Source: an uncultured Alphaproteobacteria bacterium (lineage in GTDB: Bacteria; Pseudomonadota; Alphaproteobacteria; Rs-D84; CACZYB01). Taken from it: DNA of 32,000 nucleotides. The stretch covers positions 150,001 through 182,000 of the forward strand of contig CAKQHZ010000002.1 in the NCBI GenBank assembly GCA_934246625.1. Reading direction: 5' to 3'. Shown piece by piece: positions 2,659 to 20,162 of this stretch (position 1 is its first letter; each line of letters starts with the position of its first letter). A program made the position numbers and the translations under genes. Under the pieces are notes generated by a model. The model was not told where the DNA came from. It saw only the letters and a list, made by a program, of their open reading frames with translations, and did no database searches.

Positions 2659-3474
2659 TTATTTTTTAAGGTTTTTAAGTGGAATGTTGATAGTGTTTAA
2701 TACTGTCAATAATTCATTTTTTGCAGCAATGTGTGAAAGTGAAATTTCATCTTTGCCAATTTCCATTAAGTCAAGAATTGTTAAGCCCTTTAAAAACATT
2801 TCGCGGTAGACAACTCGTTCGCCAATGCCTGAAATGTATGTAAAACCAATTTCTGTTTGAAGCAATTTTAATATTGCGTCAATTTCACGTTTGTTTTTTG
2901 CATCTATGTGTGAAATACGATTTCTTAAAACTATCCAACGAAGGTCTTGTTTGCCAAGTTCCTTTCTTTTCTTTTGTATATCACGAATATTGTTTGTGTA
3001 TTGGGATTCTGATATAATCTTTTTTGTGTATGGGTCAATGTTTGCAATAACATCTATATCAACAAGGCTGTCATTTACAGGAGTTATCAAAATGTCTGCA
3101 TTTTTGTGTCCTGCATTTGAAAGATGATTGAATGTTCCTGGTGTATCAATAATGATTATATCGTATTCCTTTTTTAAATCTTGGATTTCTGCATCAAGTT
3201 GTTCTTCGTCCTCTGCAGAACTACGTTTGTTAGAAAATTGTGATGGAGTTACAACAAGATGTTCTGGCATAGGCAATTTTAGATGATTGTCATTTGCATA
3301 GCGAATACGATTTTCAATGTAATGAGTAAGTGTTCCTTGACGACCATCTAGGTCAATAGTTGCAACTTTGTATCCTGCATATAGATAAGCTATAGCAAGA
3401 TGGATTGAAAGTGTGGATTTTCCACTGCCACCTTTCTCATTACCAACGACAATGACATAAGAATTATTGCTCAT
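2659..3474 (-). CDS. mipZ: MipZ-type ParA-family ATPase (division-plane positioning)
   Basis: Collinear with my recollection of Caulobacter MipZ along the whole length: 'VIVVGNEKGGSGKSTLSIHL', 'IDLDGRQGT', 'IIIDTPG', 'WIVLRNR', 'ERVVYREMF..GLTILDL'. ATG 3474 has a GGAGAG SD; the ORF-track start 3501 adds 9 aa without an SD. Confidence 0.8.
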   Translation of the reverse strand: MSNNSYVIVVGNEKGGSGKSTLSIHLAIAYLYAGYKVATIDLDGRQGTLTHYIENRIRYANDNHLKLPMPEHLVVTPSQFSNKRSSAEDEEQLDAEIQDLKKEYDIIIIDTPGTFNHLSNAGHKNADILITPVNDSLVDIDVIANIDPYTKKIISESQYTNNIRDIQKKRKELGKQDLRWIVLRNRISHIDAKNKREIDAILKLLQTEIGFTYISGIGERVVYREMFLKGLTILDLMEIGKDEISLSHIAAKNELLTVLNTINIPLKNLKK

Positions 3475-4460: not shown

Positions 4461-5204
4461 TCAATATTGAGCTTTTTCAAAATAAAGACCGCAAGCAGGG
4501 GCGGTTGGACCAGCAACTTTTCGGTCCTTTGCATTAAGTATTTTTATAAAATCTTCCTCTGTAAGTTTATGACGACCGACCATTTCAAGTGTGCCGACAA
4601 TATTTCTTACCTGATGATGAAGAAAGGATTTTGCATTTACCTTTATTTCTATTAAATCGTTATATCTTTCTACACTTATTTTGTCAAGTGTTTTGATAGG
4701 GGATTTCGCTTGACATTCAGAGGCACGAAACGATGAAAAATCGTGTTTGCCGACAAGGTTTTGTGCTACTTTGTCCATAAAATCAACGTCCAATGGGTGA
4801 TATACCCACCATACACGATTTTTTTCAATAATGGGGCGTGATGGACGATTTAGGATTTTGTAAATGTAATATCTTTTTTTGCATGAAAATCTTGCGTGGA
4901 AATCATCATCTACTTTTTCAACATTAAGTATGGTTATATCTTCGTTTGCAGATTGAAGATGAAAATTTGTTGCCATTAAAATTTTGTATGGGTCGTATTC
5001 CTTTGAAAGTTCTATGTGTGCGGACATTGCGATTGCGTGAACGCCAGCGTCTGTGCGGCCTGCAGAATAGCACTCTGTTTTTTCACCACAAAATTTGAAT
5101 ATGGCGGTTTCTATTGCCTGTTGTATAGATGGGCTGTCGTCTTGGATTTGCCAACCAGAATATTTTGTTCCGATATATTCTATTTCAAGTTTGTATTTTG
5201 CCAT
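4461..5204 (-). CDS. truA: tRNA pseudouridine(38-40) synthase TruA
   Basis: 'YIGTKYSGWQIQ', the catalytic 'GRTDAGVHA', and 'FLHHQVRNIVG'. Confidence 0.95.
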   Translation of the reverse strand: MAKYKLEIEYIGTKYSGWQIQDDSPSIQQAIETAIFKFCGEKTECYSAGRTDAGVHAIAMSAHIELSKEYDPYKILMATNFHLQSANEDITILNVEKVDDDFHARFSCKKRYYIYKILNRPSRPIIEKNRVWWVYHPLDVDFMDKVAQNLVGKHDFSSFRASECQAKSPIKTLDKISVERYNDLIEIKVNAKSFLHHQVRNIVGTLEMVGRHKLTEEDFIKILNAKDRKVAGPTAPACGLYFEKAQY

Positions 5205-14885: not shown

Positions 14886-15182
14886 TTAATTTTTGTGATG
14901 GCAACAATCACATTCACATTCATCATCATCTTCTTCATCGTGGTTGCAATCGCAATGTTCACAATGACAATGATGGTCGTTGTCGCAATCACAGTCGCAA
15001 TGATTTATTGGGTCTTCTTCTTCATCAGGATCTAAATCTTTATCGATTTGAACGGTAAATGAAGTGCAATCATCCATAAAACCATATTTTTCAGCATCTT
15101 TTTCATTTTTGATGAATTCGGCAATTTCTTCGTCAGAGATGCCAAGTTCCTTTGCTTTTTTCATAAGTTCTTCATTTATCAT
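14886..15182 (-). CDS. small acidic protein with Cys/His/Asp-rich C-terminal tail (putative metal-binding)
   Basis: AAGGAAAA SD. N-terminal helical part 'MINEELMKKAKELGISDEEIAEFIKNEKDAEKYGF', followed by 'HCDCDCDNDHHCHCEHCDCNHDEEDDDECECDCCHH'. Confidence 0.7.
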   Translation of the reverse strand: MINEELMKKAKELGISDEEIAEFIKNEKDAEKYGFMDDCTSFTVQIDKDLDPDEEEDPINHCDCDCDNDHHCHCEHCDCNHDEEDDDECECDCCHHKN

Positions 15183-15298: not shown

Positions 15299-15375
15299 GG
15301 GTGATTAGCTCAGTTGGCTAGAGCATCTCGTTTACACCGAGGAGGTCTGGGGTTCGAGTCCCTAATCACCCACCA
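15299..15375 (+). tRNA. tRNA-Val (anticodon UAC), encoded CCA
   Basis: GGGTGAT/ATCACCC acceptor, D arm GCTC-AGTTGGCTA-GAGC, anticodon stem TCTCG/CGAGG with loop TTTACAC, T arm TGGGG-TTCGAGT-CCCTA. Confidence 0.92.
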
Positions 15376-15385
15376 AGTTTGAAAG

Positions 15386-15408
15386 GCTTCCGAAAGGGAG
15401 CTTTTTTT
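15386..15408 (+). terminator. rho-independent terminator after tRNA-Val
   Basis: GCTTCC-GAAA-GGGAGC hairpin followed by T7. Confidence 0.7.
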
Positions 15409-15511: not shown

Positions 15512-15648
15512 CTCTACAAAAACGAACGTTTAGATTTAATATATATTCATATTACGAATAATATCCTAAAAGTCAATAAATTTATACACTTATATCCTCC
15601 CCATTTACCTCTTATTTCTATATCAAATAAACGTTGGTTTTTGTAGAG
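15512..15648. promoter_or_regulatory. candidate invertible DNA element: 21-bp inverted repeats (20/21 match) flanking a 95-bp AT-rich core with promoter-like hexamers
   Basis: IR-L is 15512-15532 (CTCTACAAAAACGAACGTTTA). IR-R is 15628-15648 (TAAACGTTGGTTTTTGTAGAG). Each IR has its own dyad AAACG-AA-CGTTT. The core carries TTGACT(15576-15571)-16-TAATAT(15554-15549) on the minus strand. See findings. Confidence 0.5.
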
Positions 15649-15819
15649 GCAAAATCGCTGAAATCGGCTGGGTTTAGTATGGATTTTAACTATAAAATAG
15701 GAGATAAATATGAAAAAGTATGCTTAATTTTAGTAAAAAAATTTGTATGTATATTATCTTTACAAAAGTTTAAAAATATAAGATAATGCTTTTATTAACT
15801 TAAAAATAAGGAAAAATAA

Positions 15820-16560
15820 ATGAATAAACCAGTTATAAAAAATATTATGTGGGATGTTGATGGTGTTCTTGCAAGTCTTGATCATGCATACTATCGCTTT
15901 TTAACAGAACACCCTAACTATAAGGAAACATATAAGGATTTAAAGTGGGAGGATTTGCCAAAGGCTCTTCCAATCGATCCAAAGTTTGGTTCCCTTGAAC
16001 TTACTTCTCATCCAACTATGGGAAAGGCTTTTAATGAAGATTTTTGCCACAACAGTGGTGAAATTTATTTCGACAGACCTTTGTATCCTAATGTCGTTGA
16101 AACATTGACTGAACTTCATAAAAAAGGATATTTGCAACTTACTATGTCTTCTGGTTTTAATGCAGAAGTCAAAAGAAAAATGATTGCCGATACTTTGGGT
16201 AGTGAACTTTCTTTTGTTAATATTGAAGTTGTTGAACATCAAAAATCAACTAAAGATGCAAGTCATGGTAAAGCAATGGTTGGTGAAAAAGAACAAAGAA
16301 TTATTGAATGTTTAAAAAAATACAATCTTAAACCAGAAGAAACTGTGCTTGTTGATGACCGAATTTTTAATTGTGAAACTGCATTAAAAGTTGGTATGCA
16401 CACAGTTCGTTGTCGTTCAGGTTTTACAACAGATACTCCTCCTGAAATAAAAGAAAAACTTGATGCAGAAGTAAAATCAGTTGCAGAATTTAAAGATTGG
16501 CTTTTAAATAATACAACATTTTATAATACTAACGAATTAAACAAACAAAATGAAAGATAA
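15820..16560 (+). CDS. HAD-superfamily hydrolase (phosphatase/nucleotidase-like)
   Basis: Motif I 'MWDVDGVL', motif II-like 'LQLTMSSG', motif IV 'VLVDDRIFN'. It ends 2 nt before kdsB. Confidence 0.7.
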   Translation: MNKPVIKNIMWDVDGVLASLDHAYYRFLTEHPNYKETYKDLKWEDLPKALPIDPKFGSLELTSHPTMGKAFNEDFCHNSGEIYFDRPLYPNVVETLTELHKKGYLQLTMSSGFNAEVKRKMIADTLGSELSFVNIEVVEHQKSTKDASHGKAMVGEKEQRIIECLKKYNLKPEETVLVDDRIFNCETALKVGMHTVRCRSGFTTDTPPEIKEKLDAEVKSVAEFKDWLLNNTTFYNTNELNKQNER

Positions 16561-16562
16561 AA

Positions 16563-17336
16563 ATGAGTAAAGTTATTACAATGATTCCTGTCCGAATGGC
16601 AGCAACTCGTCTTCCAAATAAACCTCTTCTTGATATAAATGGTAAATCACTTATACAAAGAGTTTTCGAAAATGTTCGTAAAGTTATTCCTGGAGATGTC
16701 GTTGTCGCAGCTGGGGATAAAGCTATTGTTGATGAATGTGCAAAGTTTGGTGCAAAGGCTGTGCTTACTGACCCAAGTCTTCCAAGTGGAACTGACAGAA
16801 TTGCTTCTGCATTAAAGGAAATTGACCCTGATGGCACAAAGTATGACATAGTTGTAAATTTTCAGGGAGACAACATCAATGTTGATCCATCTGTATGTCT
16901 TCCACTTGTAAAAATGGTTGAAGATACCGGTTGTGATATTGCAACTTGTGGTATGGTCTTTAAATCTGAAAAAGATGTAAATGATCCAAATATGGTAAAA
17001 ATTGTTATGGGAATCAAAGATGGTGAAGATGAAGGTCGTTGTATATATTTTACACGAGCTCCTGCTCCATTTATAAGAAATCCAGAGAAATCAAAATCTC
17101 ACAATTTCTATCATCATATAGGTATCTATGTCTATAAGGCAGAATCTTTGAAACGTATGGTATCACTTCCTGTTGGTGTATTGGAAGATAGAGAAGCTCT
17201 TGAACAACTTCGTGCAATCGAAGATGGTATGACAATTCGTGCCAAAGTTATTGGTGGAATGAAACTTGTTGAGGAAGCTCCTGCTGACATAAATACTATG
17301 GAAGAATATGAAGAAGCCAAAAAATGGATTAAATAA
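16563..17336 (+). CDS. kdsB: 3-deoxy-manno-octulosonate cytidylyltransferase (CMP-Kdo synthetase)
   Basis: 'IPVRMAATRLPNKPLLDINGKSLIQRV', 'SGTDRIA', 'VVNFQGD', 'HHIGIYVYK', 'LEQLRAIEDG'. Confidence 0.92.
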   Translation: MSKVITMIPVRMAATRLPNKPLLDINGKSLIQRVFENVRKVIPGDVVVAAGDKAIVDECAKFGAKAVLTDPSLPSGTDRIASALKEIDPDGTKYDIVVNFQGDNINVDPSVCLPLVKMVEDTGCDIATCGMVFKSEKDVNDPNMVKIVMGIKDGEDEGRCIYFTRAPAPFIRNPEKSKSHNFYHHIGIYVYKAESLKRMVSLPVGVLEDREALEQLRAIEDGMTIRAKVIGGMKLVEEAPADINTMEEYEEAKKWIK

Positions 17337-17358: not shown

Positions 17359-17382
17359 GCCCTCAATTTTGAGGGCTTTTTT
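17359..17382. terminator. rho-independent terminator between convergent kdsB and the HTH gene
   Basis: GCCCTCA-ATTT-TGAGGGC hairpin followed by T6. Confidence 0.7.
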
Positions 17383-17403
17383 GGTTGGTAAACTATTTTG
17401 TTT

Positions 17404-17637
17404 CTACCCCTCTAAATACTTAGAGAATTGCTCCCATGAAAGACCAGTAGCCCTCATAACCTTACAAATACTCTCCGTAGATGGCCATCTGAATTTGCCA
17501 CTAGGATAAAACCTTTTACTCTTATTAAATGCTGTAGCATCAAGACCTGCCTTTTTAGCCAAAGCAGAAACAGAAATACCGTTTATGTATGCAATCTTGT
17601 CAATAGTCCCCCAGATTTTAGAATGTTCTGTATCCAT
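17404..17637 (-). CDS. small HTH DNA-binding protein resembling the N-terminal domain of alphaproteobacterial LexA/CI-type repressors (copy 1)
   Basis: 'GISVSALAKKAGLDATAFNKSKRFYPSGKFRWPSTESICKVM' matches the ..LAR.AGLD.T.FNKSKR....R.RWPSTESI.K pattern. ATG 17637 has an AAGGAG SD. A TATAAT box lies inside the ORF-track's 16-aa N-terminal extension. Confidence 0.75.
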   Translation of the reverse strand: MDTEHSKIWGTIDKIAYINGISVSALAKKAGLDATAFNKSKRFYPSGKFRWPSTESICKVMRATGLSWEQFSKYLEG

Positions 17638-17714
17638 AACACAACTCCTTTGATTATAGTTCTCTCTTACGACAATCTCATACAATACATATTACAACTT
17701 ATACTAGAAAATAA
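17404..17714. repeat. left copy of a 311-bp inverted repeat (pairs with 19088..19398)
   Basis: My manual alignment of its reverse complement against 19088-19398 gives 301/311 identities. Seven of the 10 mismatches fall in the last ~60 bp at the gene 3' end. Confidence 0.9.
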
Positions 17715-17859
17715 ATATAATTGCAAGTCAAATATTTAAAGGAGAAATAATGACAGAGGAGAAAATGAACCTAATGTATTGAAAAGACGGAATAAAGCAA
17801 AGGTGTGAGAATAAAAACCTTTGGTGCCGGAATTGGGTGAGTAGGTGTGATTTAGAGAT

Positions 17860-17918: not shown

Positions 17919-18806
17919 CTATATAGCCTGACCTTCTTGAACCCAATCTTCAAGACGAGGAAGGTTTGCCTTTGCAACTGTATCTATCGCCTTTAATTGA
18001 GTTAAAACTTCCTCCATATACATCAAAGGAATTGCATTCCAAATATCGGAACCTCCTTTTAATGGCTCTGGGTGAGTTTCAATAAATACTCCAGCAATAT
18101 GACCAGTAGATAATGCTGCACGAGCAATAATTGGAGCCATACGACCTTCTCCACCAGAAGAATCTCCCATAGCAGCAGGTTTTTGCACAGAGTGAGTTGC
18201 ATCAATAACAACTGGGTATCCTGTTTCAGCCATAGTAATTAAGCCTGTATTATCAACAATCAAAGCGCCATATCCGAATGAAGTTCCACGTTCGGTTAAG
18301 CAAAGGTTTGTATTTCCATTTGCTTCATATTTACCAATAACATTTTTCATATCCTTTGGAGCCATAAATTGAGCTTTTTTAAGATTACATGCTTTACCAG
18401 TTTTTGCAATCGCACTTGATAAATCTGTTTGACGAATCAAGAATGCAGGTTGTTGAATCATATCAACATGAGGAGCAATAATACTTGCTTGTTCTTCAGT
18501 ATGAACATCGGTAATTACAGGAATATGAAATGTAGAACGGATTTCATCAAAAATTTTGATACCAGCTTCTATACCAATACCTCTTGCACCATTAACAGAA
18601 TTTCTATTAGCTTTATCAAAGGAAGCCTTAAAAATATAATTTATTCCAAGTTTTTCAGTTAAATTCTTCATATATTCAGCAATCTTTAATGCCAAATCAC
18701 GATTTTGAAGTTGGCAAGGTCCTGCAATCAAAGTAAATGGTAAATCATTACCCATTGTAATTTCCTTTGTAATACCACCACCAACTTTTATATGTTTATT
18801 TTCCAT
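17919..18806 (-). CDS. kdsA: 3-deoxy-8-phosphooctulonate (Kdo-8-P) synthase
   Basis: 'LIAGPCQLQ', 'KASFDKANR', 'VITDVH', 'IQQPAFLIRQTDL', 'NLKKAQFMAP', 'LTERGTSFGY', 'DATHSVQ', 'GVFIETHPEP'. Confidence 0.95.
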   Translation of the reverse strand: MENKHIKVGGGITKEITMGNDLPFTLIAGPCQLQNRDLALKIAEYMKNLTEKLGINYIFKASFDKANRNSVNGARGIGIEAGIKIFDEIRSTFHIPVITDVHTEEQASIIAPHVDMIQQPAFLIRQTDLSSAIAKTGKACNLKKAQFMAPKDMKNVIGKYEANGNTNLCLTERGTSFGYGALIVDNTGLITMAETGYPVVIDATHSVQKPAAMGDSSGGEGRMAPIIARAALSTGHIAGVFIETHPEPLKGGSDIWNAIPLMYMEEVLTQLKAIDTVAKANLPRLEDWVQEGQAI

Positions 18807-19087
18807 TATTTAAAATCCTTTCAATTATTTATAATTAAAAATTATATCATAAGGTAATTAAGTTAGCTATAAAAAAATAATTACATTATTTATCTTTATT
18901 ACATAGTTAAAATATAAGATGAAAATTGAAATTTTTATTAAAAAATTTACTGATTGATAAAAATTTTTCTTATTCTTAAAAGATATAACTTTGTAAAAAA
19001 TATAGTAAAATCAAATACAAGGTTCAATTATTTAACAGAACTTTTCTTATCCCCCACGATAAGAATATCTTCCTCTTGTATTTCTTC

Positions 19088-19398
19088 TTATTTTCTAGTA
19101 TAAGTTGTAATATATATTGTATGAGATTGTCGTAAGAGAGAGCTATAATCAAAGGAGTTGTGTTATGGATACAGAACATTCTAAAATCTGGGGGACTATT
19201 GACAAGATTGCATACATAAACGGTATTTCTGTTTCTGCTTTGGCTAAAAAGGCAGGTCTTGATGCTACAGCATTTAATAAGAGTAAGAGGTTTTATCCTA
19301 GTGGCAAGTTCAGATGGCCATCTACGGAGAGTATTTGTAAGGTTATGAGGGCAACAAATCTTTCATGGGAGCAATTCTCTAAATATTTAGAGGGATAG
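19088..19398. repeat. right copy of the 311-bp inverted repeat
   Basis: See 17404..17714. The repeat starts at TTATTTTCTAGTATAAG and ends at the HTH stop codon. Confidence 0.9.
19165..19398 (+). CDS. small HTH DNA-binding protein, copy 2 (near-identical paralog of 17404..17637)
   Basis: Within the Met-17 CDS it is identical to copy 1 except 'ATNLSW' versus 'ATGLSW'. Same SD and -10 context. Confidence 0.75.
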   Translation: MDTEHSKIWGTIDKIAYINGISVSALAKKAGLDATAFNKSKRFYPSGKFRWPSTESICKVMRATNLSWEQFSKYLEG

Positions 19399-19427
19399 GA
19401 ATAGAAAGAACCAATTATGTAGAATTA

Positions 19428-19461
19428 CCACAAGAGGATATACTCCTCTTGTGGAGGTTTT
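19428..19461 (+). terminator. probable rho-independent terminator
   Basis: Perfect 11-bp stem CCACAAGAGGA-TATAC-TCCTCTTGTGG followed by AGGTTTT, a weak T tract. Confidence 0.5.
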
Positions 19462-19542
19462 AGCGACATATTTTCATAGCATACATAAGGTGAAATCTGA
19501 TAATTCTTATAATTTTAATAATCAAAATTATAGGAGTAAAAA

Positions 19543-20136
19543 ATGATTTATGGATATATTCGAGTTTCAACAGAACAGCAAAATACCGAAAATCAATATC
19601 ACGAAATTTTAACCTTTGCAAAACATCAAAATTTAATTATCAATAAATGGATTGATGAAGTTATTTCATCAAAAAAATCACTTAAAGAAAGAAAACTTGG
19701 CAACCTTTTAAAACATCTTAAAAAGGGTGATATTTTGATTGCATCAGAGCTTTCTCGACTTGGTAGAAATCTTTTGGAAGTCATGGGAATTTTACAAAGT
19801 TGTTTAGAAAAAGATTGTCAAATTTGGACCATAAAAGAAAACTATCGTTTGGGTTTGGATATTCAATCAAAGGTGCTTGCTTTTGCATTTTCTTTGGCTG
19901 CAGAAATTGAAAGACAACTTATTTCTCAACGAACAAAAGAGTCGTTGAAACGGTTAAAAGATGAAGGCAAACATCTTGGTCGTCCAATAGGTTTTGCGCA
20001 TAAAAAACTTGATTCAAAATGTGATGAAATAAAAGAACTTCTTTCAAAAAATATTTCCAAAGCCGAAATTGCACGACTTATGAATTGTTCGTGGATTACT
20101 TTACATCGATATATACAAAAAAGGAATAAAAGATAA
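19543..20136 (+). CDS. serine recombinase, small DNA-invertase type (Mpi-like)
   Basis: 'MIYGYIRVSTEQQ' contains the catalytic Ser. Also 'ASELSRLGRN', 'NYRLGLDIQSKVLAFAFSLAAEIERQLISQRTKESL' and a C-terminal HTH 'ISKAEIARLMNCSWITLHRYI'. At 197 aa, its length and central motifs match my recollection of Bacteroides Mpi-family invertases. Confidence 0.85.
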   Translation: MIYGYIRVSTEQQNTENQYHEILTFAKHQNLIINKWIDEVISSKKSLKERKLGNLLKHLKKGDILIASELSRLGRNLLEVMGILQSCLEKDCQIWTIKENYRLGLDIQSKVLAFAFSLAAEIERQLISQRTKESLKRLKDEGKHLGRPIGFAHKKLDSKCDEIKELLSKNISKAEIARLMNCSWITLHRYIQKRNKR

Positions 20137-20162
20137 GATATTCTTATTGTGGAAGAGTTTGT

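Follow-up and report, generated by a model that had tools for sequence, protein, structure and literature searches.

Introduction

Invertible promoters are a well-known source of phase variation in gut Bacteroidales. The Mpi-controlled promoters of Bacteroides fragilis and the DNA inversion systems of the Din family, namely Hin/hix, Gin/gix, Cin/cix, Pin/pix and Min/mix, are the described systems closest to the element reported here. The element lies at positions 15512-15648 of a 32,000-nucleotide stretch of DNA from an uncultured gut alphaproteobacterium (contig CAKQHZ010000002.1, positions 150,001 to 182,000; the whole stretch is referred to as the window), between a tRNA-Val gene and HAD-kdsB, an operon encoding a HAD-IA family hydrolase and the synthetase of cytidine monophosphate (CMP)-activated 3-deoxy-D-manno-octulosonic acid (Kdo), a sugar of lipopolysaccharide. 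It contains a short cassette that is found inverted between two crossover sites in natural populations, and this cassette carries a predicted promoter that would fire either away from the operon or into it. Invertible segments of the Din family are about 1-4 kb long and carry genes. Din crossover sites consist of two imperfect, inverted 12-bp half-sites with a 2-bp core between them at which strand exchange takes place (PMC3241671). The published inverted repeats (IRs) TGTTTCAAAAAACGTTCGT, TGTTTCAAAAGACGTTCGTCT, ATGTGTTTTTAAACGTACGTTTA and TTTTAGACGTTCGTTTA of Bacteroides invertons fit the core ARACGTWCGT, and the last of them adjoins upxY (PMC10939037 supplement). Surveys of the PhaseFinder/DeepInverton type report invertons across Proteobacteria.

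The element resembles the Mpi invertible promoters of B. fragilis in the way it works, and the hix, pix and mix sites in the architecture of its crossover sites. The likeness to B. fragilis lies in a small serine invertase (a full-length match to NCBIfam NF009949, 0.5 bit under the cut-off), in the short promoter cassette, in a recombinase gene that does not adjoin its target, and in a site type that recurs at several loci in relatives. The element nevertheless falls outside the strict Bacteroides Mpi system, from which it differs in host (an AT-rich gut alphaproteobacterium, not a member of Bacteroidales), in target (HAD-kdsB, which keeps a fixed promoter, not a capsular polysaccharide operon led by upxY), in the borderline score of its recombinase and in the orientation of its core dinucleotide. 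Nor is it a classical Din system, given its tiny segment of 107 bp with a promoter only and no gene, a recombinase gene that lies 3.9 kb away instead of adjoining, and no known enhancer; an internal enhancer like that of Hin would not fit into the core spacing of about 109 bp. Like the invertons catalogued by PhaseFinder and DeepInverton, it is an IR-bounded promoter cassette beside envelope or surface genes in a gut bacterium. The Mpi family name of the recombinase homologues is already known from public annotation, and what is new is the host and the target of a Mpi/Din-type inverton; in the searchable literature neither the element nor any Mpi-type inverton of gut Alphaproteobacteria is described, nor is an inverton upstream of kdsB, and absence there is no proof.

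Results

Two inverted crossover sites of the Din/Mpi type

The arms of the element, the crossover sites of which they are part and the segment between the sites are as follows.

15512-15532: left inverted repeat (arm), CTCTACAAAAACGAACGTTTA
15628-15648: right inverted repeat (arm), TAAACGTTGGTTTTTGTAGAG
15513-15538, plus strand: left crossover site, 26 bp, with outer half-site TCTACAAAAACG, core AA at 15525-15526 and inner half-site CGTTTAGATTTA
15622-15647, plus strand: right crossover site, inverted, 26 bp, with inner half-site ATCAAATAAACG, core TT at 15634-15635 and outer half-site GGTTTTTGTAGA
15527-15633, no strand: invertible segment, 107 bp between the two core dinucleotides, exactly inverted in contig L007

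As the original prediction had described, the 21-bp arms are identical at 20 of 21 positions and stand 95 nt apart, in an element of 137 bp. A search of the window with the 21-mer (S at the variable base, up to three mismatches) matched the two arms only, two matches were obtained in none of 100 dinucleotide-preserving shuffles, and the short dyad AAACSNNSGTYT occurs in the window only at both arms. An inverted repeat of 20/21 within 1.5 kb has a chance expectation of about 0.1-0.2 in an AT-rich window of 32 kb, by rough estimate, and therefore the repeat is not decisive by itself. No Rfam family matched the element.

The arms are the repeated part of the 26-bp sites, which are imperfect dyads that reach into the core of the cassette. 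The right site reads TCTACAAAAACC-AA-CGTTTATTTGAT as its reverse complement. The 26-bp layout with exchange at a 2-bp core is shared with the Din family, as is the sequence AAAC-S-AA-S-GTTT, which is common to hix, pix, mix and the window sites (PMC3241671), and the reverse complement of the right site, AAACC-AA-CGTTTAT, equals the pixR site of Pin over 15 bp (PMC3241671). The outer ends of the half-sites differ, being TCTAC in the element and TTC or TTATC in Din sites. The view that each arm is a dyad around a central AA/TT in the manner of serine-invertase sites was thus borne out, as the Din layout fits and exchange maps to arm positions 14-15 (see below).

The sites also resemble the Bacteroides IRs, in which an A-tract is followed by A-R-ACG-WW-CGT-Y-T (TGTTTCAAAARACGTWCGTYT in Bacteroides, CTCTACAAAAACSAASGTYTA in the window; PMC10939037 supplement). 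Bacteroides IRs with a Mpi-type core have CAAAARACG-WW-CGTYT in common with the window sites, and the pattern common to Bacteroides IRs and the window arms is an A-tract, ACS, WW and SGTYT. The left arm, AAACGTTCGT on the minus strand, matches ARACGTWCGT in full, and the right arm, AAACGTTGGT, matches it at 9 of 10 positions. This sequence had been put forward as the core of Mpi sites, and as the probable core it fits the published Bacteroides tables. Two differences from Bacteroides concern the element itself: its core, read from the A-tract side, is AA as opposed to TT or TA, and its length is 137 bp as opposed to 161-233 bp for the tabulated IR pairs (PMC10939037 supplement). The sequence CAAAAACGAA is absent from the published Bacteroides IR tables (PMC10939037 supplement).

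Inversion in natural populations and the point of exchange

A sample of about 30 human-gut metagenome contigs (denoted L and a number) was drawn from public assemblies of Hadza and other cohorts, the contigs being those that encode exactly the proteins in question (the window HAD, KdsB, the 98-aa left-hand open reading frame (ORF), the resolvase paralogue). The census of orientation covers the contigs listed, with places that have the same neighbouring proteins merged. The element is present in 20 contigs, of which 19 (one, L130, a diverged allele) have the orientation of the window and one, L007 (ERZ27241620), is inverted. L007 is collinear with the window over 6.7 kb, and its positions 4693-4829 match 15648-15512 in reverse.

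Single-nucleotide polymorphisms (SNPs) in the arms locate the exchange. Contig L005 has ...ACGAA|CGTCTA in the left arm and, as the reverse complement, ...ACCAA|GGTTTA in the right arm, whereas L007 has ...ACGAA|GGTTTA and ...ACCAA|CGTCTA in the same places, so that the arms of L007 are reciprocal chimeras of those of L005. When L005 was inverted in silico at all symmetric breakpoints, the best fit to L007 (532/537) was obtained only with 13, 14 or 15 outer arm bases left in place, and therefore exchange took place in the central AA at 15525-15526 and its partner TT at 15634-15635. Public assemblies thus resolve the point of strand exchange to the 2-bp core without experiment. The inversion is recent, since the flanks of L005 and L007 are identical at 396 of 400 positions and the core differs by one SNP.

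A second contig, L157 (ERZ28613922), comes from an independent sample and ends at ...CTCTACAAAAACGAA, at the core AA, which is the last base common to both orientations in that strain type. This end point is as expected of branching of the assembly graph with both orientations in one sample. An artefactual flip during assembly is unlikely, because the k-mer length suggested by the contig names, 141, greatly exceeds the 21 bp of the arms. Two more contigs, L137 and L140, do not stop at an arm but within the T-run that follows the tRNA terminator, and are uninformative on inversion. The exact inversion in L007 and the end of L157 at the predicted crossover agree with the segment having been proposed as invertible, and the element is very probably a genuine site-specific invertible element.

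The candidate recombinase, its paralogue and related invertons

19543-20136, plus strand: Mpi-type serine DNA invertase of 197 aa, the candidate enzyme, with a Resolvase domain and HTH_7

The presence of a Mpi-like serine invertase 3.9 kb from the element had been noted from its motifs, and a family match that falls just short of the cut-off is in keeping with it. Over its full length the product scores 271.5 bits with NF009949, "master DNA invertase Mpi family serine-type recombinase", for which the cut-off is 272, and 33 bits with the next family. PF00239 is matched at E=3e-30, and PF02796 at 23.1 bits, just below its cut-off of 23.8. Relatives number in the thousands in gut metagenomes, and those at 84% identity, in metagenome-assembled genomes (MAGs) of Alphaproteobacteria, are named Mpi family by NCBI. 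The enzyme is like those of the Din family in its length of about 190-200 aa, its catalytic N-terminal domain and its C-terminal helix-turn-helix (HTH) domain, but it is only distantly similar to its best match among solved structures, 4m6f, a 193-aa chain deposited as 'DNA-invertase' (E=6e-13, in an end-to-end alignment that includes the N-terminal RVS motif).

In strains of the L004, L009 and L129 type, a paralogue of 195 aa, 85% identical to the window enzyme, is encoded about 310 bp to the left of the element. Directly upstream of this paralogue lies a second inverton of the same site type, inverton B, whose arms read CTCTACAAAAACC-AC-CGTCTA and TAGACG-GT-GGTC and whose core is homologous to that of the window element (inverton A). 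It occupies positions 3580-3715 of L004, 141-277 of L009, about 340-470 of L129 (ERZ4559348) and about 2290-2425 of L155-L158, and its predicted promoter, TTGACT-17-TATAAT, faces the 195-aa resolvase paralogue. The sequence to the left of the centre (AC) of its left site differs between strains: L004 has a gene of 475 aa and a SlipAM/Slam gene, and L129 has an HTH_73 gene and a gene weakly similar to PhiKZ_gp35. It looks as if sites that are not partners had recombined.

A related MAG, JAZSQL01 (labelled Alphaproteobacteria), has an orthologue of the recombinase at 70.6% nucleotide identity and at least five invertons bounded by CTCTACAAAAACC-AA-CGTTTTTGTAGAG and CTCTACAAAAACG-TT-GGTTTAAACG. 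The five, which are near-identical, are located as follows.

L031, 55-245: JAZSQL01 inverton
L073, 7120-7310: JAZSQL01 inverton
L097, 828-1018: JAZSQL01 inverton
L118, 7598-7788: JAZSQL01 inverton
L127, 156-346: JAZSQL01 inverton

Each lies about 80 bp upstream of a gene for one of a set of paralogous signal-peptide proteins of about 246-250 aa with a weak match to Lcl_C, and the contigs break there. On the other side of the L127 inverton lie an lpxA-like gene (checked) and then two ORFs read by eye as lipid A genes. This MAG was matched five times in a scan of genome contigs with ACSWTSGTTTTTGTAGAG, a loose pattern that otherwise gave mostly single chance matches (about 118 matches); a scan of JGI metagenomes with CTCTACAAAAACSAASGTYT gave 14 unrelated single matches, none of them similar to the window or to the recombinase.

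The enzyme encoded at 19543-20136 may well be the one that acts on the window element. This pairing is supported by the 195-aa paralogue near the element, by inverton B upstream of that paralogue, and by the orthologue and invertons of JAZSQL01.

Some further sequences around the recombinase genes were observed. The region upstream of the window recombinase (19407-19542) has only a remnant of the right outer half-site of inverton B (GGAGGTTTTAGCGACAT, compared with GGTGGTCTAGTTGTCAT), and a perfect hairpin is present at 19421-19447. Upstream of the orthologue in the MAG (L073, 330-485) there is a site-like sequence, TAGACG-TT-GGTTTATGAAGAG, at 463-483, with a possible partner near 335-355. An 18-bp inverted repeat with 17/18 matches (CCACGATAAGAATATCTT at 19054-19071 and AAGATATTCTTATTGTGG at 20135-20152) surrounds the module of the second HTH ORF and the recombinase, and by rough estimate is near chance expectation in the AT-rich window. 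In the strains with the 195-aa paralogue, a fragment like the 3' end of a tRNA, ...TTCGGGAATCCTGTAATCTC(T/A)CCCACCA (by eye; L004 4530-4560, L155 about 3235-3265), directly precedes the terminator that follows tRNA-Val in the window, and homology to the window starts at 15366, within the tRNA. This suggests that an element inserted at tRNA-Val in these strains.

A predicted promoter in the cassette and the operon to its right

The features that bear on transcription are as follows.

15549-15576, minus strand: predicted sigma-70-type promoter, outward-facing, with -35 TTGACT at 15576-15571, a 16-nt spacer and -10 TAATAT at 15554-15549
15759-15787, plus strand: TTTACA-17-GATAAT, a fixed promoter-like site that is not part of the switch and precedes the HAD start by 33 bp
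15299-15406, plus strand: tRNA-Val (15299-15375) and its intrinsic terminator (15381-15406), the left boundary of the locus
15820-16560, plus strand: HAD-IA family hydrolase, specificity unassigned, first gene of the operon
16563-17336, plus strand: kdsB (CMP-Kdo synthetase), 2 bp after HAD, NF003952 at 219 bits (cut-off 193)

A promoter scan gave 8 promoter-like sites where shuffles predict 7.6, and with a count so close to expectation, hexamer matches alone carry no weight; the original prediction had itself warned that they are cheap in AT-rich DNA. The promoter is accepted as the probable payload of the cassette because inverton B and the diverged allele of L130 (TTGACA-17-TAATAT) have retained its hexamers, and because the JAZSQL01 invertons have a similar geometry (TTGCTT-17-TATACT). 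In an alignment of invertons A and B, both ends of the core, ATTGACTTT and ATTATTC-N-TA(A/T)AAT are conserved and the other parts of the core have diverged. The predicted -10 ends 16 nt short of the arm through which readout would run. Phylogenetic footprinting gave no information on the stretch from the arms to HAD, since the alleles to be compared share 95% identity.

As oriented in the window, the promoter faces left, antisense to tRNA-Val, and in L007 it points right, through the right arm, toward HAD-kdsB; no terminator-like site was found by the scan between 15649 and 15819. Several earlier claims can be read against these observations. The minus-strand TTGACT-16-TAATAT is present and conserved, and would be expected to fire; flipping does aim it at HAD-kdsB, as is seen in L007; and the window orientation, in which it points away from the operon, is reasonably called a presumptive OFF state. 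The separate TTTACA-17-GATAAT that had been raised as a caveat turned out to be important, being the best promoter-like match of the region and conserved in relatives without the inverton. For this reason the switch is not needed for expression of HAD-kdsB; to judge from the sequences, it probably boosts or modulates expression instead of gating it, and was probably added upstream of an operon that already had its own promoter.

The orthologues of HAD indicate how widely the element is distributed. At 83% identity HAD-kdsB is kept and the inverton is absent, and at 86%, 78% and 69% identity HAD is not linked to kdsB and no such sites are present; the element is therefore lineage-restricted. 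In contigs L167 and L168 (about 10-200) of the related species whose HAD is 83% identical, a pair of GC-rich inverted repeats of about 50 bp (...GAGCCCGCCCGCGGGGCGGGGGTTCGGGCGGGCGC...) with an AT-rich core of about 90 bp lies about 450 bp upstream of HAD-kdsB, and may represent an invertible or mobile element of another kind.

Neighbouring genes and repeats

17919-18806, minus strand: kdsA (Kdo-8-phosphate synthase), NF003543 at 355.7 bits (cut-off 242)

The kdsB gene is followed at about 17359-17385 by a hairpin and T-run that by eye resemble a terminator. Beyond it, kdsA lies on a segment of 1347 bp between inverted repeats of 332 bp (17396-17727 and 19075-19406), which are 95% complementary and each hold an HTH ORF of 77-93 aa. 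This segment is flipped in L001, which could be the result of homologous recombination or of assembly ambiguity across the 332-bp repeat. In L130 kdsA follows kdsB directly on the same strand, and this order suggests an ancestral HAD-kdsB-kdsA unit. A role of HAD as Kdo-8-phosphate phosphatase was considered and finds no support from conserved synteny, as the distant orthologues are not linked to kdsB, and a role in Kdo metabolism is putative and unproven.

To the left of tRNA-Val, a 98-aa ORF on the minus strand (14886-15182) has a good ribosome-binding site, a tail rich in Cys, His and Asp (...HCDCDCDNDHHCHCEHCDCNHDEEDDDECECDCCHHKN) and only a sub-threshold match to SinI, in its N-terminal part. 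The window also encodes MipZ, GyrA, FtsK and TatC, which fit an alphaproteobacterial chromosome.

Discussion

A model of the switch and its weak points

In the proposed mechanism, two inverted 26-bp sites of the Din/Mpi type bracket a cassette of 107 bp with one outward-facing sigma-70 promoter. A serine invertase of the Mpi family would bring the sites together in a synapse, cut both core dinucleotides with a 2-bp stagger and rejoin the strands after rotation, leaving the cassette flipped. The best candidate for this enzyme is the product of 19543-20136; some strains encode a 195-aa paralogue about 310 bp to the left of the element. In the window orientation transcription from the cassette would run leftward, antisense to tRNA-Val and without an obvious target; once flipped, the cassette would transcribe across the right arm into HAD-kdsB, along a path free of terminator-like sites. 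The switch would then most likely set the expression of the CMP-Kdo-forming operon at a basal or a boosted level instead of turning it off and on. This model as a whole, including the control of HAD-kdsB by the promoter, is considered likely.

Several points weigh against it. The distance from crossover to crossover is about 109 bp, which is short for synapsis, and no further copy of the crossover site exists inside the window. The recombinase gene lies 3.9 kb from the element and its product scores 0.5 bit under the curated cut-off. The flipped state was seen in only one of the 20 contigs with the element, in a census of assemblies. Promoter-like sites are about as frequent as in shuffled sequence, and HAD-kdsB has a better-scoring fixed promoter, a counterpart of which, TTTACA-16-TATAAT, precedes HAD-kdsB in the 83%-identical orthologues that lack the inverton. 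Finally, a second kdsB gene elsewhere in the genome, if there is one, would make an OFF state harmless.

Alternative readings

It is possible, but unlikely, that the cassette is invertible and HAD-kdsB is not its target, the element either serving leftward transcription or being a relic kept only as a substrate of the recombinase. Leftward transcription would run antisense to tRNA-Val and into the 98-aa ORF at 15182 or, in L129-type strains, antisense to the 195-aa paralogue. The conserved fixed promoter of HAD-kdsB is in keeping with such a reading, as are the leftward orientation of the promoter in 19 of the 20 contigs with the element, the lack of any flagged minus-strand terminator between 15512 and 15182 and the good ribosome-binding site of the 98-aa ORF. 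However, the left neighbour varies with strain type (tRNA-Val and the 98-aa ORF, or the resolvase paralogue), whereas HAD-kdsB is constant on the right, and transcription would have to cover about 330 bp, including a tRNA in antisense, before it reached the 98-aa ORF, just upstream of which lies a promoter-like site on the ORF's own strand.

That the two orientations are a fixed strain polymorphism, left by a one-off historical inversion with no ongoing phase variation, is improbable. A single flipped assembly would be compatible with it, the census being based on assemblies, but the near-identity of L005 and L007 makes the inversion very recent, L157 ends exactly at the point of divergence, as it should with both orientations in a single sample, an intact gene of the Mpi family lies nearby, and the sites are intact across all strains. 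It is highly improbable that the repeats are the termini of a miniature transposable element, a protein-binding palindrome or a hairpin, with L007 a re-insertion or an assembly artefact: short AT-rich elements bounded by repeats are common and the arms are predicted to pair as single-stranded DNA (z = -4.9), but re-insertion would move whole arms, whereas L007 keeps the outer 13-15 bases and swaps only the inner ones, the k-mer length of the assembly far exceeds the arms, and the element has no Rfam match and sites that match serine-invertase crossover sites.

Implications

The preferred reading is thus an invertible promoter that modulates HAD-kdsB. A wider reading, tentative and rather doubtful at present, is that the switch belongs, as one node, to a Mpi-like recombination network with many sites in the uncultured Alphaproteobacteria of the human gut. 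In such a network recombinase paralogues would lie behind invertible promoters of their own, exchange between non-partner sites would re-join promoters to other genes, and control would reach into the core lipopolysaccharide (LPS) pathway. If true, the supply of CMP-Kdo would be phase-variable, which would bring envelope-core chemistry, and not only accessory surface structures, under such control, and lpxA beside an inverton in the related MAG would be a second link to core LPS.

The site pair of about 137 bp and the enzyme of 197 aa form a compact system that is amenable to study in Escherichia coli. The locus documents a Mpi-type invertase, hix-like sites and DNA inversion in uncultured AT-rich Alphaproteobacteria from Hadza and other gut metagenomes, to which it would extend phase variation by invertible promoters, and the position of the switch before a Kdo-activation operon, not a capsule or fimbrial locus, suggests heterogeneity within populations in the supply of LPS or Kdo-glycan, which could affect immune recognition and phage susceptibility.

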